Virus record (IMG/VR): IMGVR_UViG_3300031555_001562
Direction: 5' to 3' (one strand)
Length of the DNA: 64,000 nt
Source of the DNA: a virus
Lineage: Duplodnaviria; Caudoviricetes
The translations under genes and the position numbers were made by a program. Positions within the stretch are counted from its first letter, which is position 1. Each line of letters begins with the position of its first letter. Shown here in pieces: positions 40,665 through 48,166 of this stretch. The notes beneath the pieces were generated by a model. It made no database searches. It saw nothing but the letters and a program-made list of their open reading frames with translations, and was not told the DNA's origin.

Positions 40665-43448
40665 ATGGAGCAGAAGAGCTGCTTAAAAATGATTTACAAA
40701 GTTCACAGCAGACAAATACTCAAAGCCAAACTCAATTTGGTGATGCCGCTTGAAACTGCTATGAGCGATTACCCTGAGATGATCGTCTCACTGAATGATA
40801 GTCAGCTGCTACGGTTCATAGATGAACTGAACGGTGTGACGGAAGTCGATGAGAAGATCAGAGAGATTAAGAAGAAAATCAAGTTCGAGAAGAAACGACC
40901 ACGGAGCAGAGAAACCAAAGTCAATATCAAGAACTTATATCGAAACCTGTATGAGCTGCAATTTAAGAAAGATTATGTCTGTGTAATCATGGACAGCAAT
41001 GCAGACTATGATCGCATCAACCAGGGATTCACGATCAACGGAATTCAGTTCCGGAGATTCCTCGGAACCAATGGTGGAATCAAGAATTCTACCATCGTGT
41101 ATGTAAATGCAGAACTATATCCTGAATTGAAACGCAGATTGGACAACGGAAGAGACATGACTAAGGCACTGGTTCCTGCAAAGCTGGAGGCTTACCAGGC
41201 GCTCGTGTGTTCAGGTTCTACTCCGCTGCCGCCACCAAAAGGATTCATCGTTGTCAACGATTGCATTACCAAATTTACAGATGATGTGATCCTAATCAAT
41301 GATGAAACAGATGGTGAACCCGACTTGACGTATGTCAAAGACTATGAGATTGAACACAACGATTCTGACGGCTATGGCCTGATGCTACCCTCCTATTCTC
41401 GCAAGGTCAACGAGTATTTGACTGGTGATGGAGAAAATACCATCTCCGGAATGAACACCCGGTATGCGTGGACTAAGGGCATGGTTTACACATTCGATTT
41501 CATTGAGTTTGCAGAGAAAATAGCTGGGACTTATGAGATCATCGACGCATGGGGCGACAAGAGGGATATCCGGGATGCAGAAGTCATTTTGACTGTATCT
41601 ATGCTGAAGCTGTGGGACAGCTATTCGAGTTGGGAAGACTACTACGAGAATTGTGAGAAAAACCATTACCAGTTCTCTACACCAAAGATTACTCCTGCAA
41701 ATCTGGAACACGTTCGCAATACGAACTATCAGTTCCTCCAGAGTTACAATTTCACAGATGAAGAGCTGCAAGCACTGTGCCAGCCAACAATAGATGAAAT
41801 CAAGGACGTTCTTGGCATGGACTACCGTAAGAGCCTCGTATTCCTTGCTGGCTATGGTCTGAATGATGACAATGCCTATACCGACAATTTCGATTACTGC
41901 ATTCGTGCGCTTATGATCGATGAGCGGATGATTAATGATCCTTTCATTCGCCGCAAGATCTGGAACATGATTACACGCAGAATTGAAATGGCAAAGCGTG
42001 GCGCAATCAAAGTCAATGCAAACTTCGCTATGATTTCTGGTGATCCATATGCTCTGGCGCAAAGCATGTTCGGACTGGAAGTGACCGGACTGCTGAAGGC
42101 AGGAGAAGTATATCACAAATATTGGATTGACAAGGGATCTACGGAGCTTGCTTGTTTCAGAGCGCCCATGACATGCCACAACAATATCCGCAGGATGAAA
42201 CTCTGTCTGACAGAAGAGGCTGCACACTGGTATCAATATATTACCACCGCCTCAATTCTGAACGCATGGGATACTGCGTGCGATGCAATGAACGGTGCAG
42301 ATAAAGACGGCGATACCAATATGGACACCGATAATCCCGTGATCGTTCGCAACACACTCAACTCTCCAACAATCGTCTGCATGCAGCGCAAGGCAGAGAA
42401 AAAGGTTGCTACGGAAGAGGATATCATTCAGGCGAACAAACTTGCGTTCAATGACGATATCGGAACGGTGACAAACCACGTTACGAGTATGATCGAGGTT
42501 CAGGCTGGTTTTGAACCTGGTAGTGACGAGTATGAGACTCTGGCCTATCGCATCATGTGTGGTCAGCTGTACCAGCAGAACACGATTGATCGTGCAAAGG
42601 GCATTATTGCAAAACCAATGCCTGAGTATTGGTATAACATCCGGGATAACATTGTCAGAGATGATGATACTCCGGAAGAGGCAGAGACTAAGCGGTATAA
42701 CAGAAGAATCACTGCGGCGAACAAACCATACTTCATGACATACGTGTATCCCAATCTTCGGACGAAGAACAATACATATATCAAGAACAGCGATTACGGC
42801 GCAATCATGCGGTTCGGCGGATACGGAATCCGTAGTATCAAGGATTTGGAAAAATATGAACCAAAGACTCAAGAGATGCTGGACTACCTTGATTACTACT
42901 ATCGATACATACCAGTTGGCAACAATGCCTGTGTCGTAAATAGAATCTGCTGGATTTTTGAGAATGCATTCAACGGTTATCTATCAAAAAAATATGAGCA
43001 ACCAAAATTCGATTACAACATTCTAAAGAGTAATGTTGAGTACAGTCGTAAGAACTATCTTGACATTCTTGCAGTATATGAGGACTATCAGCGCCGCATT
43101 GAAGCATTCCAGAAGAGATCAAAGGCAGAAAAACTTGATCTGTTCGATGCGTGGCAGGAGCGTAGCCGCCTTACTACCTGGTTCCGGAAGTCTTGCGAAG
43201 AAATTTGCTCAAACGAAAAAGAACTATGTGATATCGTGATCGATATCTGCTATAAGGCCGAGAAGACAAAACAGTTTGCATGGGATATTTGTGGATCAAC
43301 TATGCTTGACAATTTGCTTGCAAATAATGGCGGTGTGATTCATTATCCAAAGTTGACGGATTCTGATGGCGATTTCGTTTACTGCGGTGAACAGTTTGTT
43401 ATGTGCGAAAAAGAGATTGGTGGTGATAGTGATGATTGTTTTGAATGA
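40665..43448 (+). CDS. YonO-like single-subunit RNA polymerase
   Basis: 927 aa; DGYG, FRAP and catalytic NGADKDGD motifs; lies upstream of the late genes. Confidence 0.88.
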   Translation: MEQKSCLKMIYKVHSRQILKAKLNLVMPLETAMSDYPEMIVSLNDSQLLRFIDELNGVTEVDEKIREIKKKIKFEKKRPRSRETKVNIKNLYRNLYELQFKKDYVCVIMDSNADYDRINQGFTINGIQFRRFLGTNGGIKNSTIVYVNAELYPELKRRLDNGRDMTKALVPAKLEAYQALVCSGSTPLPPPKGFIVVNDCITKFTDDVILINDETDGEPDLTYVKDYEIEHNDSDGYGLMLPSYSRKVNEYLTGDGENTISGMNTRYAWTKGMVYTFDFIEFAEKIAGTYEIIDAWGDKRDIRDAEVILTVSMLKLWDSYSSWEDYYENCEKNHYQFSTPKITPANLEHVRNTNYQFLQSYNFTDEELQALCQPTIDEIKDVLGMDYRKSLVFLAGYGLNDDNAYTDNFDYCIRALMIDERMINDPFIRRKIWNMITRRIEMAKRGAIKVNANFAMISGDPYALAQSMFGLEVTGLLKAGEVYHKYWIDKGSTELACFRAPMTCHNNIRRMKLCLTEEAAHWYQYITTASILNAWDTACDAMNGADKDGDTNMDTDNPVIVRNTLNSPTIVCMQRKAEKKVATEEDIIQANKLAFNDDIGTVTNHVTSMIEVQAGFEPGSDEYETLAYRIMCGQLYQQNTIDRAKGIIAKPMPEYWYNIRDNIVRDDDTPEEAETKRYNRRITAANKPYFMTYVYPNLRTKNNTYIKNSDYGAIMRFGGYGIRSIKDLEKYEPKTQEMLDYLDYYYRYIPVGNNACVVNRICWIFENAFNGYLSKKYEQPKFDYNILKSNVEYSRKNYLDILAVYEDYQRRIEAFQKRSKAEKLDLFDAWQERSRLTTWFRKSCEEICSNEKELCDIVIDICYKAEKTKQFAWDICGSTMLDNLLANNGGVIHYPKLTDSDGDFVYCGEQFVMCEKEIGGDSDDCFE

Positions 43449-44295
43449 AAAAGAGTATGCAGAGCAATGTCTGAAGTCAAAGACTATCGGTGACAAGCCA
43501 TTCTTCACCCTTTCAATTTTGGCGAAGTACTATTACCACTGCCACGGATACAGAAAGAAGAAGATTACAGATCTGCTGATTTCATTCATCAGTGAATGTT
43601 ACCCACGGTACTCATGCAACCGTGCCGACTGGGATGCCCATATCGAGAAGTTGGCAGCAAGCGCCGGAAAGTACACACTATTTGAGATCGATGGAATCTG
43701 GATTACACGAGCAGAGCTGGATACCATTGAGGGAATTCACAACAAGGTTCTTGAGCGCCTTGCATTTACGATGCTCTGCCTTGCAAAGCTTGGTAATGCA
43801 CGGAACAGCAAGAACAATGGATGGGTCAATTACACAGCCAAAGACATCTACTCTATGGCCAGGATCTCATGCAGCGTTATTGACCGGTACGAAAAGCTTT
43901 CACAGCTTAACCAGCTATCTCTGCTAGAGTTCCCGAAAAAGAATGATAACCTAAGCAGTCGAGTTACATATGTCGATGATGACAGCGAAAAGATTTTGTT
44001 TATCTATGACTTCAGAGAGCTTGGATATGAGTATCTGAAATACAAGGGTGAAAACTTCATTCGTTGTAGGGAATGTGATGTTCTTGTGCGCAATAACAAG
44101 TGTGGCGACAAGAAATATTGCTCTAACTGCGCTGGTTATGTGCCGATGGAGCGAAAACAAGTTACCTGTGTTGATTGTGGGGTTGAATTCACAGTAAACT
44201 CAAAAAACAACAAAACACATAGGTGTGCATATTGCCAAAAAGAATATGTTCGGGCATATGACAGAGAGCGAAAGAAACGAGATAATTCCGTTTAA
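43432..44295 (+). CDS. Hypothetical protein with C-terminal Zn fingers
   Basis: CREC, CSNC, CVDC and CAYC; overlaps the RNAP stop. Confidence 0.75.
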   Translation: MIVLNEKEYAEQCLKSKTIGDKPFFTLSILAKYYYHCHGYRKKKITDLLISFISECYPRYSCNRADWDAHIEKLAASAGKYTLFEIDGIWITRAELDTIEGIHNKVLERLAFTMLCLAKLGNARNSKNNGWVNYTAKDIYSMARISCSVIDRYEKLSQLNQLSLLEFPKKNDNLSSRVTYVDDDSEKILFIYDFRELGYEYLKYKGENFIRCRECDVLVRNNKCGDKKYCSNCAGYVPMERKQVTCVDCGVEFTVNSKNNKTHRCAYCQKEYVRAYDRERKKRDNSV

Positions 44296-44521
44296 CAATT
44301 AAAACCGATTTTTGTTTTATCACCCGGAACCCTCGAAACTTTCGGGGCTTAAAATGGTGCAAATAAAACACAAAAATTCCTATTATAGTGGGAATATATA
44401 CGTCCTACAAATCTCATTTCTTTATCTTTCTCTTTTCTTTGTGTGTGGCACTGGTGCGGCAATCGCCGTGCCAGATGCGCTCAAAGAGAAGTTTATCAAT
44501 AGTTCAAAGGAGACAATAGTT

Positions 44522-45169
44522 GTGATTACGCTGAAGAAGAGTTTTGAGTTGCAGAACTATCTGAAGAGATTGTTCGATGATGCTCTGAGTGTCTTGTCCT
44601 ACAATGACAATATCACTGAGACCAAACAGGAACACATGCGAAAGAAAGTTCTGGCTGACGCAGAGGATGAGGTCGTTACCAAGCCTAAGCGTCATGAGTA
44701 TGAGTTCGATATGAATACACTGATCGACTTTGCGTGCTACATTCAGGAGCAGATGTCAACCCTGACCACCGAGATCAATGTTGCAAAGTACAACAGTATC
44801 AGTGATCTTGACGGCATGATCGCCGTGAACAACCAGAAGCGCAAGTTGCTGGAACGCATGGTCGCTATGTCTGCGGTTAAAGCCAGAGAGACCATTACCC
44901 AGGGACGTGGTGTGAAGTTCAATGGTGAGGGCAACCAGACTACCTACACCTATGATATCAAGGAGATCACCACTATCGACTTCGACCGGAATAAGGTCAA
45001 GGCAATCGCAAGTCGGCTGCGCCGTGAACTGGATGAGACCTCCACTGAGATCGACAAGATGATGCTGGAAACCAGTGTCTATTACGTCTCTATTTTTGAG
45101 ATCGGTGATGATCTGGAGGAAGCTGTCACGAAGTACCTCGACGAAAAGAACAAGGGTAATAACACCTAA
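44522..45169 (+). CDS. Helical hypothetical protein preceding the candidate ncRNA
   Basis: AAGGAG RBS and GTG start; FNGEGNQ..Y.YD....TTIDFDRNKV. Confidence 0.75.
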   Translation: MITLKKSFELQNYLKRLFDDALSVLSYNDNITETKQEHMRKKVLADAEDEVVTKPKRHEYEFDMNTLIDFACYIQEQMSTLTTEINVAKYNSISDLDGMIAVNNQKRKLLERMVAMSAVKARETITQGRGVKFNGEGNQTTYTYDIKEITTIDFDRNKVKAIASRLRRELDETSTEIDKMMLETSVYYVSIFEIGDDLEEAVTKYLDEKNKGNNT

Positions 45170-45277
45170 ATAAACATATGCGGCTTATGTGAACCATCCT
45201 TCTAACTATATACAGACTCTGCCGATTGAGTGAATCGGCTCCATACAAGATAAGGTTCAGAAATTTCCGCAATTTAC

Positions 45278-45735
45278 AGTGACTACTATATAGAGGGCTG
45301 GAATATATTTTGATTTCAGTCGCTTCAGGTGCAGACGAAGTGTAGTGCTGCGCAGCTTTGGTGAGCTTATCGCCAGTATTGAATCATTTCAATAAAACTT
45401 TGATACTCGCTATCAAAATCTTTATACATACTTGGTTAAGCCAGATTGTAGGCTCCATTTTGAAGAAAGTAGTGCATGCGATAATCAAGGCCATAATCGA
45501 TCTGCGTTCAATACGTGAATTCCGTAATTCAACAATTCGAAATATCAATAACTCAATAATCGTTTCGCCAACATGATGGATCAAATATTTGGGTCAGTTA
45601 ATGAAATTCTTAATAGATAACAATGCAAAAGAGGAATGATCTCTTCTGGATTAATGCAATTCGGATTTGGTCATCGATTTTTGATTAAATTGATTGGGTT
45701 GATTTGATATTTCAGTCTTCTATATAGTAGTCACT
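45278..45735 (+). ncRNA. Candidate large structured ncRNA
   Basis: Ends form a 29-bp stem (45278-45306 with 45707-45735) whose three mismatches are all G-U compatible. Confidence 0.6.
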
Positions 45736-45744
45736 TTTACATAT

Positions 45745-45831
45745 GGGCGAGTAGAGTGTAATTGGTATCACCCCGGACTGTAAATCCGGTGCTTTTAGCC
45801 ACTGTAGGTTCAAGTCCTACCTCGCTCACCA
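45745..45831 (+). tRNA. tRNA-Tyr(GTA)
   Basis: Cloverleaf; ccgga-ctGTAaa-tccgg; CCA. Confidence 0.92.
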
Positions 45832-45835
45832 ATAT

Positions 45836-45911
45836 GGGTGGGTGGCGTACATGGTTGGCGCACCGGACTGAAAATCCGAGGACGTTGGTTCGATTCCAAC
45901 CCCTCCCACCA
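45836..45911 (+). tRNA. tRNA-Phe(GAA)
   Basis: cgga-ctGAAaa-tccg; TTCGA loop; CCA. Confidence 0.85.
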
Positions 45912-45915
45912 ATAC

Positions 45916-45990
45916 GGCTCGTTGGTATAACGGTTATTATACCGGACTGTCTCTCCGGTGACATGGGTTCGACTCCCATACGGGTCGCCA
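45916..45990 (+). tRNA. tRNA-Asp(GTC)
   Basis: ccgga-ctGTCtc-tccgg; CCA. Confidence 0.92.
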
Positions 45991-45993
45991 CAT

Positions 45994-46068
45994 GCAAGTG
46001 TACCCAAGTGGTTAGGGGCAGCACTGATAATGCTGTAGACGTGAGTTCAAATCTCTCCGCTTGCACCA
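45994..46068 (+). tRNA. tRNA-Ile(GAT)
   Basis: cagca-ctGATaa-tgctg; CCA. Confidence 0.85.
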
Positions 46069-46167
46069 TACAGAGTTGCATAACTCTTACTTTTTTGGTT
46101 CTTCGGTAAACCTGAAACCGATCTTGGAGACAAGGAGGAGTCTGCATAGATTCCTCATATCTGATAT

Positions 46168-46243
46168 GGCTCCTTAGCTCAGTCGGTAGAGCAACGGCCT
46201 GTTAAGCCGTGGGGCGAAGGTTCGAGTCCTTCAGGAGCCGCCA
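46168..46243 (+). tRNA. tRNA-Asn(GTT)
   Basis: acggc-ctGTTaa-gccgt; CCA. Confidence 0.95.
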
Positions 46244-46256
46244 AATAATTCTCTAT

Positions 46257-46334
46257 GGGGCAGTAGACGAATTGGATAGAGTCACCAGCCTTTCACGCTG
46301 GAATTTGTGGGTTCGATCCCCATCTGCCTCACCA
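46257..46334 (+). tRNA. tRNA-Glu(TTC)
   Basis: ccagc-ctTTCac-gctgg; CCA. Confidence 0.9.
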
Positions 46335-46341
46335 AATATAT

Positions 46342-46417
46342 GCCGATATAGCTCAATTGGCAGAGCAACTGATTTGTAATCAGTAGGTTGGGGGTTCAAG
46401 TCCGTCTATCGGCTCCA
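46342..46417 (+). tRNA. tRNA-Thr(TGT)
   Basis: actga-ttTGTaa-tcagt; CCA. Confidence 0.95.
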
Positions 46418-46423
46418 ACTGAT

Positions 46424-46499
46424 GCGGACATAGCTCAATTGGTAGAGCATCTGATTGCCATTCAGAAGGTTGCGAGTTCAAGCCTCGTTGTTCGCTCCA
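46424..46499 (+). tRNA. tRNA-Gly(GCC)
   Basis: tctga-ttGCCat-tcaga; CCA. Confidence 0.93.
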
Positions 46500-46534
46500 A
46501 CAACAAAAAAATACACCAAAGGAAGTTTAGATAT

Positions 46535-46705
46535 ATGAAGCAGATCACTAAAGAAGAAATGGAACGGTTACTGAGCAAGGGAATTGTTCGGAACTCCCAC
46601 AAGGGTTTCGTTGACAAGAAGGGATTCACTGTTGGATTCTACCGCACTCGTAACAAACGATATATTGAGGATAAATACGTAGGTATTGCAAGAAAGCTTT
46701 CTTGA
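46535..46705 (+). CDS. Small basic hypothetical protein
   Basis: MKQITKEEMERLL; the longer track ORF overlaps tRNAs. Confidence 0.6.
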   Translation: MKQITKEEMERLLSKGIVRNSHKGFVDKKGFTVGFYRTRNKRYIEDKYVGIARKLS

Positions 46706-46723
46706 TAAGTAGGGCTGTGGCGT

Positions 46724-48166
46724 ATGAGCAAGAAAAAGTTAAAAGGCGACGGCATCTTCTTTACCGGAAAAGCTTCCGAAGAGGTCACTGGATCTCAGTA
46801 CCTGGTACGTTTTGGAGATTATCAGATCTTGCTGGAATGCGGATTGCACCAATCCAAAAGTAACAGCTATCTTGATTCTTACAAGATAAACTCCGAAAAA
46901 TTTCAATTCAAACCGTCTGAAATTGATTTCTTGTTTGTAGCCCATCCTCATATCGACCATTGCGGCCTTATTCCAAAACTTGTGAAAGAGGGATTCCGTG
47001 GCAAGATCATTGCAACACAAAATACCGCCACGATCATGAAACCACTTTTGCTAAATTCATGCTACATCCTAAGTGATGAGGCACGTCTTCTTTCGAAGCG
47101 ATATAAAAGAGAATACAAGCCTTTATACGAAGAATCAGATGTTCATACTGCCTTGCGGTTAGTCAATGCTTACTGCGAGTACAATACAGTATATCAGCTA
47201 AATGAAACGATCAGTTTCCAGTGGCTGAAGAACTCCCATTGTGTTGGTGCTGCGCAGTTGCAGCTTATCATGAGCGACAAGGGAAAAACGAGAAAAATCC
47301 TGTACACATCTGATATTGGCGCTCTACATACAAATAATCATTATTTGACGGATACTGAGATTCCTGCAATGTTTAACGATGTTGTTATCATGGAATCTAC
47401 ATATGGCGAGTCTAGACGAGATACAAAGAAAACCAGAGGCTTTGATGTTGAACACCTAAGAGTTTCAATTAACACCGTTCTTGAAAGGGGCGGCAGCGCA
47501 ATTCTGCCATGCTTCAGCTTTAGCAGAACGCAGGAGCTACTGACTACTTTGTATGATATCTATGGCTCAGACGAAAATTTCGCTACGCAGATCATTGTTG
47601 ACTCAAAGCTGAGTTGCGACATTAGCAAGCTGTACTCATCTGTATTGGATGGGAAAGACCTTGAAATGTGGGAATCAGTATACAATTGGCAGAATGTCAA
47701 GTTTATATCCGAGAAAACTGACTCACAGCATTGTGTTGCCGATCCTACACCAAAGATTGTAATCTCTTCTTCTGGTTTCTGTACAAACGGAAGAATTGTG
47801 AATTACTTGAAACAATATTTGAAAGATCCGAACAGTATGGTGATCTTCTCCGGTTACACTGGCGATAATCCAACATACTTGTCATATAGAATCAAGAATT
47901 ACAGAGAACATAAATTCATCAGCATTAACAAAGAGCAAATTGCCAACAAAGCAGATTGTATTACTCTTTCAACCTTCAGTAGTCATGCAAATCACAGTGA
48001 CCTAATCAGGTATGGTAGTTCACTGAATACAAACAAGGTGATCCTTGTGCATGGTTCTGCTGAGGGCAAAAAGTGTTTGTCCGAAAAGTTAAAAGAAGCA
48101 ATCTCCAAAAATGACAAGACATATCGTGTTATGTCTGCTTTCCGTGGCATGATTGTTCATTTATAA
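46724..48166 (+). CDS. MBL-fold beta-CASP ribonuclease
   Basis: EVTGS, HPHIDHCG, SHCVGA, YTSDIG, MESTYG, FSSHA and LVHG motifs. Confidence 0.9.
   Translation: MSKKKLKGDGIFFTGKASEEVTGSQYLVRFGDYQILLECGLHQSKSNSYLDSYKINSEKFQFKPSEIDFLFVAHPHIDHCGLIPKLVKEGFRGKIIATQNTATIMKPLLLNSCYILSDEARLLSKRYKREYKPLYEESDVHTALRLVNAYCEYNTVYQLNETISFQWLKNSHCVGAAQLQLIMSDKGKTRKILYTSDIGALHTNNHYLTDTEIPAMFNDVVIMESTYGESRRDTKKTRGFDVEHLRVSINTVLERGGSAILPCFSFSRTQELLTTLYDIYGSDENFATQIIVDSKLSCDISKLYSSVLDGKDLEMWESVYNWQNVKFISEKTDSQHCVADPTPKIVISSSGFCTNGRIVNYLKQYLKDPNSMVIFSGYTGDNPTYLSYRIKNYREHKFISINKEQIANKADCITLSTFSSHANHSDLIRYGSSLNTNKVILVHGSAEGKKCLSEKLKEAISKNDKTYRVMSAFRGMIVHL

Follow-up and report, generated by a model that had tools for sequence, protein, structure and literature searches.

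Large structured bacterial RNAs with unknown function are rare, and past cases have revealed new biology. OLE, a large structured RNA of anaerobic Firmicutes, works with dedicated Oap partner proteins encoded alongside it and, to our knowledge, has not been reported as circular. In archaea, bulge-helix-bulge substrates (tRNA and rRNA introns and some C/D box RNAs) give circular RNAs joined by RtcB, and we know of no bulge-helix-bulge splicing endonuclease in bacteria. The ROOL and GOLLD RNAs, which are several hundred nucleotides (nt) long, highly structured, non-coding, of unknown function and found in Firmicutes, phages and prophages, sometimes beside tRNA genes, have been described as RNA-only multimeric assemblies by cryo-electron microscopy, in work that also contains an OLE structure (PMC12286853). 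Reports of bacterial or phage RNAs in the form of a ring are rare. In our literature search, bacterial circular RNAs encoded by DNA were limited to introns, i.e., circles derived from permuted group II or group I introns (PMC8637638), and one small RNA, the linear/circular non-coding RNA DucS of Bacillus altitudinis (PMC10504365). Type III toxin-antitoxin systems such as ToxIN (PMC3401426) combine a protein gene with a processed repeat RNA in a compact mobile two-part module. Here we describe a large non-coding RNA element, together with the upstream gene for an uncharacterised protein (P0001), in a 64,000-nt stretch of DNA (hereafter, the window) from a Caudoviricetes virus, IMG/VR record IMGVR_UViG_3300031555_001562. 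The full record, of which the window is a part, has 163,674 bp and is rated complete by CheckV. At least half of the stretch is present in 16 listed sequencing runs, four runs containing it are recorded as RNA, and the RNA and DNA runs originate from bovine gut, rumen and faeces. A literature search found no described counterpart of the RNA, of the protein family or of their pairing. The element is a new class of protein-linked large RNA, for which a ring form is backed by one study.

The element is an RNA conserved as a fold (Table 1). It is closed by a 29-bp stem (P1), already recognised in the initial annotation, with arms that are 90% complementary and lie 400 nt apart. All three mismatches place a G of the 5' arm opposite a T of the 3' arm, which corresponds to G-U pairs on the plus strand and A-C on the minus strand. 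The 17-mer core of the arms occurs in the window at these two sites only (0.12 expected by chance), and the whole element folds with -131.8 kcal/mol (z = -5.0 versus shuffled sequences). Relatives of P0001 were found on 21 viral and 50 genome contigs, and the structural counts refer to 59 non-identical protein-found elements, 15 diverse relatives or 67 representatives. A closing stem of 16-45 bp, enclosing 300-530 nt and situated 10-200 nt past the stop codon, is present in every protein-found locus with enough downstream DNA; the stem sequences are wholly different between lineages, with pairing retained. The regions downstream of the protein homologues show covariation. RNAalifold predicted 45 pairs for the 15 diverse relatives, 39 of them with compensatory changes. 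In the 47-pair structure formed by P1, its extension P2/P3 and both stems of an internal pseudoknot, 95.4% of cells in the same relatives were paired, versus 35-43% with a slid partner; compensatory changes on both sides were observed for 39 of the 47 pairs, and none of 500 shuffles reached any of the observed measures. The interior of the element is not alignable between lineages with MAFFT, although the partner proteins are still 40-60% identical; the established structure is the terminal rod and the knot only.

The H-type pseudoknot motif was found at a nearly fixed offset just inside the stem in all 59 non-identical elements. It consists of G-S-UUC, AG, six variable bases (mostly NNGCAG), AY, GAA-S-U, approximately six further bases and the complement of the six. 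Lineage variants of its first stem, S1, are GCUUC/GAAGU and GGUUC/GAACU. The second stem, S2, has compensatory changes at all six pairs and two-sided variants such as GUGCAG/CUGCGC, GCGCUG/CAGCGC, GUGUGA/UCACAC and UUGUC/GACAA. For the 32 pairs of P1 and S2 taken together, 93.7% were canonical in the 67 representatives, versus 36-47% with a slid partner. The GATT-rich 3' tract had been considered complementary to the AAUUC repeats inside the element; this pairing was not retained, since the G/U-rich sequence at ~45692-45700 pairs instead with the U-rich 5' strand of P2/P3, lengthening the closing rod.

The conserved pairing is specific for one strand. G-U pairs outnumber A-C pairs 170 to 44 in the 67 representatives, and the terminal domain is more stable on the plus strand in 55 of the 59 elements, with means of -68.8 versus -55.1 kcal/mol. 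An intrinsic terminator follows the element on the plus strand in four loci (L006-L009). The centre of every element, in all lineages and with GC-rich hosts included, is depleted of G on the plus strand. In the window this G-poor tract contains the short AAT(T)C repeats reported initially, which appear as AAUUC-type units, and self-similarity of the tract at an 8-nt lag amounts to 0.327, compared with 0.287 in shuffles. The interior open reading frames (ORFs) extend to only 72 amino acids (aa) on the plus strand and 66 aa on the minus strand and have no Pfam or PHROG match, which agrees with the earlier statement that the element holds no credible ORF. A coding ring was ruled out by stop codons in all six frames of the ring. 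The pairing asymmetry, the stability of the plus strand, the G depletion and the family-less ORFs point to a single-stranded, plus-sense non-coding molecule and not to a DNA-level site. Proposed in the initial annotation, a large structured non-coding RNA is thus strongly supported by covariation, strand asymmetry, the lack of a credible ORF and the high RNA depth reported below.

The linkage between the RNA and the P0001 family was assessed in a sample independent of the protein, obtained by scanning metagenome contigs with the knot motif only (at least 120 matches, 80 loci fetched). A same-strand P0001-family gene is present in all 72 knot-found loci with at least 750 nt of upstream sequence, and a long closing stem in all 70 loci with room for it. 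The P0001-family gene and the RNA are an obligate pair. The initial annotation had proposed both this linkage, which stands, and a possible ribonucleoprotein. A consensus scan detected no plus-strand promoter-like site between the P0001 stop codon and the RNA, and one RNA-library contig reaches the 5' arm from the P0001 gene. Gene and RNA are therefore probably parts of a single transcript, for which a promoter-like site upstream of P0001 is a possible start (Table 1).

Four RNA runs were compared with positions 43800-46700, and the element is represented in three of them. In two bovine-gut metatranscriptomes the element was assembled as its own contig with a depth of 229 and 220, respectively, whereas the depth was 20 and 6.4 on the P0001 gene and 0-3.6 further upstream. 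The element thus has 11-34 times the depth of the gene, and a depth so far above that of the upstream DNA indicates that the signal is RNA and not carried-over DNA. The third run contains a 383-nt contig within the element at a depth of 19, versus 6.2 on the P0001 gene. A raw-read RNA run (X21) had no reads on the stretch and hence provided no test.

Joined ends of the RNA were observed in assembled contigs from two samples of one study. The 461-nt contig of run X17 proceeds from 45311 to 45720 and then from 45292 to 45340, and the 460-nt contig of run X18 from 45484 to 45718 and then from 45291 to 45512, so that the joint connects 45720 with 45292 in X17 and 45718/45719 with 45291/45292 in X18. 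Both contigs have a 30-nt terminal overlap (k minus 1) and hence represent closed paths of 431 and 430 nt; the strains in the metatranscriptomes carry two 1-nt insertions relative to the window. The joint lies in the middle of P1, leaving 14 bp with the flanks and 15 bp in the ring, and the two cuts are offset by 1-2 nt. The palindromic CUAUAUAG is present in both arms and gives rise to an 8-11-nt direct repeat, which is far too short to close a 31-mer graph; reads spanning the junction must therefore exist. Both assemblies retained the joint path and lost the precursor branches (depths of 20 and 6.4), which suggests that the joint form is commoner than the precursor.

Table 1. Features of the protein gene and the RNA element in the window
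Feature	Position	Strand	Description
Promoter-like site upstream of P0001	44258..44286	+	10/12 consensus matches; weak, such sites occur at chance level in the region
Partner protein gene P0001	44522..45169	+	215 aa; GTG start preceded by AAAGGAGA; uncharacterised helical protein with beta-hairpin, predicted homodimer
P1 5' arm	45278..45306	+	Compensatory changes in 25/27 aligned pairs
Closed (circular or head-to-tail) RNA	45292..45720	+	Metatranscriptome contigs
P2/P3 5' strand	45312..45321	+	Pairs with 45692-45700; 8/9 pairs compensatory, 4/9 G-U in the window
H-type pseudoknot	45322..45353	+	S1 45322-45326/45337-45341; S2 45329-45334/45348-45353
Hairpin right after the knot	45359..45375	+	Strain variant G45372A turns U-G into U-A, helix kept
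G-poor tract	45478..45573	+	About six AAUUC-type units at 8-9-nt spacing
P2/P3 3' strand	45692..45700	+	Preceded by conserved AAAUUG (45687-45692)
P1 3' arm	45707..45735	+	Partner of 45278-45306; closing helix

The partner protein P0001 has no match in Pfam (E-values up to 0.1), PHROG, NCBIfam (E-values up to 0.01) or PADLOC. A large protein collection contains 2039 homologues (E-value of 0.001 or lower), all of them unnamed and lacking a Pfam domain. The family is hosted by Oscillospiraceae (such as Flavonifractor, Pseudoflavonifractor and Intestinimonas), Lachnospiraceae and Selenomonadaceae, and cultured carriers of the module include Intestinimonas massiliensis, Pseudoflavonifractor capillosus ATCC 29799, Lawsonibacter celer and Flavonifractor species. 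INPHARED provided no match to P0001, and its DNA matches were limited to tRNAs. In the structural model of P0001 (predicted local distance difference test, pLDDT, of 93), helical hairpins are accompanied by a long beta-hairpin spanning residues 122-150. The top-ranking fold match was 3kdq_A, an uncharacterised protein of Corynebacterium diphtheriae (Z of 10.5, root-mean-square deviation of 3.8 A over 146/152 residues, Foldseek probability of 0.97), with the reservation that Z values under about 13 can reflect a common arrangement in helical proteins. A sequence search of solved structures gave nothing below an E-value of 0.1, Foldseek comparisons with PDB and BFVD produced weak rows only, and the ESM Atlas search returned unnamed clusters and a match of 0.91 to DUF7873, which serves as a lead only. 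Prediction with two copies yielded a symmetric homodimer with approximately 190 contacts and a score of 0.70, versus 0.00 for the best of three controls; at least 96% of contacts were shared between runs, and the partner pLDDT is at least 88. Among proteins of solved structure, a mark of 0.70 was attained by 20 of 30 pairs but only 1 of 23 single chains, and P0001 probably forms a symmetric dimer.

We consider it somewhat better than an even chance that the locus is a co-transcribed protein and RNA module, whose RNA is released by cuts in the helix that closes it and becomes a stable ring through joining of its ends. A gene for a protein of ~200-215 aa from an unknown family is followed on the same strand by a non-coding RNA of ~300-530 nt, most likely within one transcript. 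The rod formed by P1, P2 and P3 (~40 bp) juxtaposes the RNA ends and leads to a core, which comprises the conserved H-type pseudoknot and several hairpins and has at its centre the G-poor, unstructured tract with its ~8-nt AAUUC units. Each strand of P1 would be cut halfway along the helix (after 45291 and 45720 in the window) and the ends joined, the product being a covalently closed RNA of ~430 nt that would offer no free ends to exonucleases and far outnumber the mRNA. An unstructured, periodic, G-poor tract suggests a row of sites for an oligomeric binder, for which the obligately linked dimeric protein is the obvious candidate; the AAUUC tract would most likely be a row of binding sites for the partner protein, and the working form would be a ring-shaped RNA-protein particle. 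Of this scheme, the analysis shows the fold with its conservation and strand, the obligate gene-RNA linkage, the joined ends and the high RNA level, whereas co-transcription, the order of cutting and joining, the enzymes, the protein binding and the biological role are inferred. It is conjecture that the protein makes the cuts, that RtcB joins the ends, or that the particle serves as a decoy, a sponge or an antitoxin-like restraint of the protein. As a tentative extension, which we would sooner doubt than accept, the module may represent a widespread and so far undescribed circular-RNA system of Firmicutes and their phages, in which the dimer would recognise the middle of the helix and cut or direct cutting, a host ligase such as RtcB would close the ring, and the particle would act in trans, e.g., by persisting as a decoy or sponge that occupies an RNA-binding factor of the host or the phage.

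Several observations weigh against the ring and its protein particle. Depth at the joint, strand and end chemistry cannot be read from contigs. The exact joint, with 0-3 free bases allowed, was not found in metagenome contigs; these are apparently DNA assemblies of at least 1 kb, and the missing joint is thus not evidence against a ring. Cuts that leave a 1-2-nt 5' overhang within an uninterrupted helix do not have the geometry of RNase III or of the archaeal bulge-helix-bulge endonuclease. The 8-nt period is a modest signal, with z > 2 for 14 of the 67 representatives. The protein family is acidic, with a median isoelectric point of 5.2, so that RNA binding is not obvious from charge, and no recognisable RNA-binding or nuclease fold was detected in P0001 by Pfam, Foldseek or structure comparison; RNA binding or cutting by P0001 is therefore conjecture.

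The first two of these points also favour the strongest competitor, which we regard as unlikely: a genuine and abundant processed RNA would be linear, with ends trimmed to positions inside P1, and the joint would be a jump of reverse transcriptase from the 5' end to the adjacent 3' end held in the same helix, with a few reads closing the graph. The joint further differs by one base between the runs, as expected from imprecise jumping or ragged ends. This explanation has to account for two assemblies that both kept the joint path and dropped the precursor branches; moreover, the cycles were output from arbitrary starts with a clean 30-nt overlap, which suggests a joint more abundant than the precursor.

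With respect to the enzymes that would produce a ring, the archaeal bulge-helix-bulge pathway resembles the present case in that a helix unites two cut sites, the excised piece is ringed, and RtcB is present in the hosts. It differs in the helix itself: P1 is continuous over 29 bp with three G-U pairs, has no 3-nt bulges around a 4-bp helix, and is cut with a stagger of 1-2 nt. The middle of P1 in other lineages tends to contain mismatches or consecutive wobble pairs. The RNA contigs included no joined flanks. The phage has no RtcB or RNase III gene. RtcB genes are present in all three host genomes checked and also in 10 of 14 control genomes, and are thus compatible with joining by RtcB but not diagnostic of it. 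The phage does have, at a site remote from the module and beyond the window, an open frame of 445 aa that contains an RNA_ligase domain (PF09414, E-value of 3.7e-12; G000:C1:137732-138412).

The genomic contexts of the relatives, compared by ORF clustering of the flanks, are diverse. In Oscillospiraceae the module resides in small integrase islands, where a convergent cI-type helix-turn-helix gene ends inside the 3' arm and a tRNA gene is near. A small island of ~5 kb in a complete Clostridiales genome (L049, 809-5422) is tRNA-bounded and comprises an integrase, a 184-aa unknown protein, the module, a cI-type helix-turn-helix gene and small ORFs; a further module copy (L090) is present in this genome, as is a DUF6847 gene (L101). 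In ten Selenomonadaceae loci the module is located between gltX and cydAB, and in one Lachnospiraceae locus (L068) it stands alone between purE and a peptidase gene. Some genomes have two copies. The module is self-contained and mobile, and also stably inheritable.

Such contexts bear on the function of the module, and in particular on a pair akin to type III systems, either toxin-antitoxin-like or acting in abortive infection, in which a harmful or effector protein would be held by an abundant repeat RNA. This reading, compatible with a ring, would explain a stand-alone ~1.6-kb unit between housekeeping genes, as in L068 and the Selenomonadaceae, the prophage islands with the module between integrase and cI-type repressor, the presence of two copies, and an RNA with repeated units far above the mRNA. 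We nonetheless hold it to be improbable. No toxin family, including those of ToxIN, CptIN and TenpIN, was matched by P0001 in PADLOC, Pfam or NCBIfam; the RNA follows the gene, whereas type III repeats precede an endoribonuclease toxin gene, and its units measure ~8 nt within a large fold instead of forming ~36-nt tandem repeats. Furthermore, an antitoxin should be labile and a ring would be long-lived, and the fixed chromosomal site across Selenomonadaceae suggests vertical inheritance.

The start of the element 10-200 nt past the stop codon, and its adjacency to tRNA-Tyr in the window and in L004, would also suit a cis-acting 3' untranslated region or processing signal, which would stabilise the upstream mRNA or mark the start of tRNA-array processing and have no function of its own. 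We judge this very unlikely: 300-530 nt with a conserved knot and a repeat tract far exceed what a stabiliser needs, most relatives have no tRNAs nearby, and the RNA accumulates apart from the mRNA at a much higher depth. A DNA-level element, i.e., an iteron origin, an invertible or excisable segment or a miniature transposon, as might be suspected from the long inverted repeats, the AT-rich ~8-10-bp repeats and the target-duplication-like TTTAC on both flanks of the window copy, is scarcely tenable given strand-specific pairing, a covarying internal pseudoknot, G depletion on one strand only and the RNA-library depth relative to the flanks. A miniature inverted-repeat transposon was rejected on further grounds: the element has a single copy in the 163.7-kb phage, the arm 16-mer occurs only singly in 10 viral contigs and in none with paired arms, and relatives have no flank duplication.

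Comparison with described RNAs assigned the element to no known family. Infernal searches of window positions 43000-48000 and of 10 diverse relatives gave no Rfam 15 match on the element at E-values up to 1, and only tRNAs and chance-level matches outside it; raiA, HEARO and all other models are thereby included. The parallel with GOLLD and ROOL beside tRNA clusters, drawn in the initial annotation, persists as a loose analogy of size, structure and habitat: neither model matches, most relatives have no adjoining tRNAs, and the present RNA is set apart by the protein gene that obligately precedes it, by its periodic G-poor tract and by its joined ends. The OLE model does not match either, and the OLE partner proteins are different from P0001. 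Group I and group II intron models also lack matches, and no flanking intron halves are present (the stop codon lies 10-110 nt upstream and a tRNA 9 nt downstream); the conserved protein partner further distinguishes the element from intron circles and DucS. Models of hammerhead, twister, hepatitis delta virus-like, pistol, hatchet and hairpin ribozymes gave no match at E-values up to 1, a result that concerns known ribozymes and not a new one. No transfer-messenger RNA (tmRNA) was predicted by ARAGORN and no Rfam tmRNA match falls on the element, with one weak permuted-tmRNA match in the tRNA array. Among the scanned neighbours in phage, prophage and chromosomal contexts there is no reverse transcriptase of the kind encoded next to the non-coding RNA in retrons and systems of defence-associated reverse transcriptases.

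A second comparison concerns the DIP1984/DUF6847 family (PF20935), whose solved member is 3KDQ. P0001 is ~50 aa longer and, as noted above, superposes on this structure, but does not match PF20935, for which the best E-value in the whole phage is 0.22, elsewhere in the genome. No mention of DIP1984, DUF6847 or 3KDQ was found in a literature search. Canonical DUF6847 genes exceed the family cut-off in 16 of 301 Bacillota genomes, where they are followed by a different RNA with a T-loop-like motif and without the present knot or long stem. Downstream of four DUF6847 genes (L091, L092, L095, L101), the shared sequence is GGCGAG...CC.CC.AC.GG...AGT.GG with the T-loop-like GGTTCRAWYCC. The sequence suggests that the non-coding stretch after DUF6847 genes forms a separate gene-plus-RNA class, and the relation of the P0001 module to DUF6847 is at most distant, with a shared theme and a distinct class.

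In the window, several further features flank the module. A 927-aa protein encoded upstream at 40665-43445 (plus strand) matches the RNA-dependent RNA polymerase family PF05183 (E-value of 2.9e-9) and three PHROGs without known function, and may be a YonO-like single-subunit RNA polymerase. It is followed at 43366-44292 (plus strand) by a gene for a 309-aa protein (phrog_30716) with a C-terminal zinc-ribbon/HNH-like tail, the start of which overlaps the end of the polymerase-like gene by ~80 nt and which is conserved upstream of the module in several phage relatives. In related phages the module follows the polymerase-type and the ~309-aa protein in five loci; the polymerase-like gene was found upstream of the module in the window, L004, L005, L022 and L028. 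Between the P0001 stop codon and the closing stem, a short GC-rich hairpin without a U-run (GCCGATT...AATCGGC, 45221-45239) lies in a spacer that is restricted to the closest relatives of the window. On the other side, the element ends, as stated initially, 9 nt before an array of eight tRNA genes that starts with tRNA-Tyr at 45745. The otherwise dense array has a 99-nt gap between tRNA-Ile and tRNA-Asn (46069-46167), in which no tRNA or Rfam match was found. Right after the array, a metallo-beta-lactamase RNase of the beta-CASP/RMMBL type (RNase J or CPSF type) is encoded at 46724-48163 (plus strand); beta-CASP RNase genes recur 3' of the module in four related loci, and the phage enzyme is a candidate for RNA processing.

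The module ranges over gut and rumen Clostridia, Negativicutes and their phages, where it occupies phage tRNA regions, prophage immunity regions and fixed chromosomal sites. If true, an RNA ring that is linked to a protein and excised from a helix would point to an unknown processing pathway and an RNA-protein particle, and thus to a new route to bacterial circular RNA and a new class of RNA-protein particles. A compact, efficiently circularising natural sequence could help to make stable RNA in bacteria. The cultured carriers make the question directly testable.

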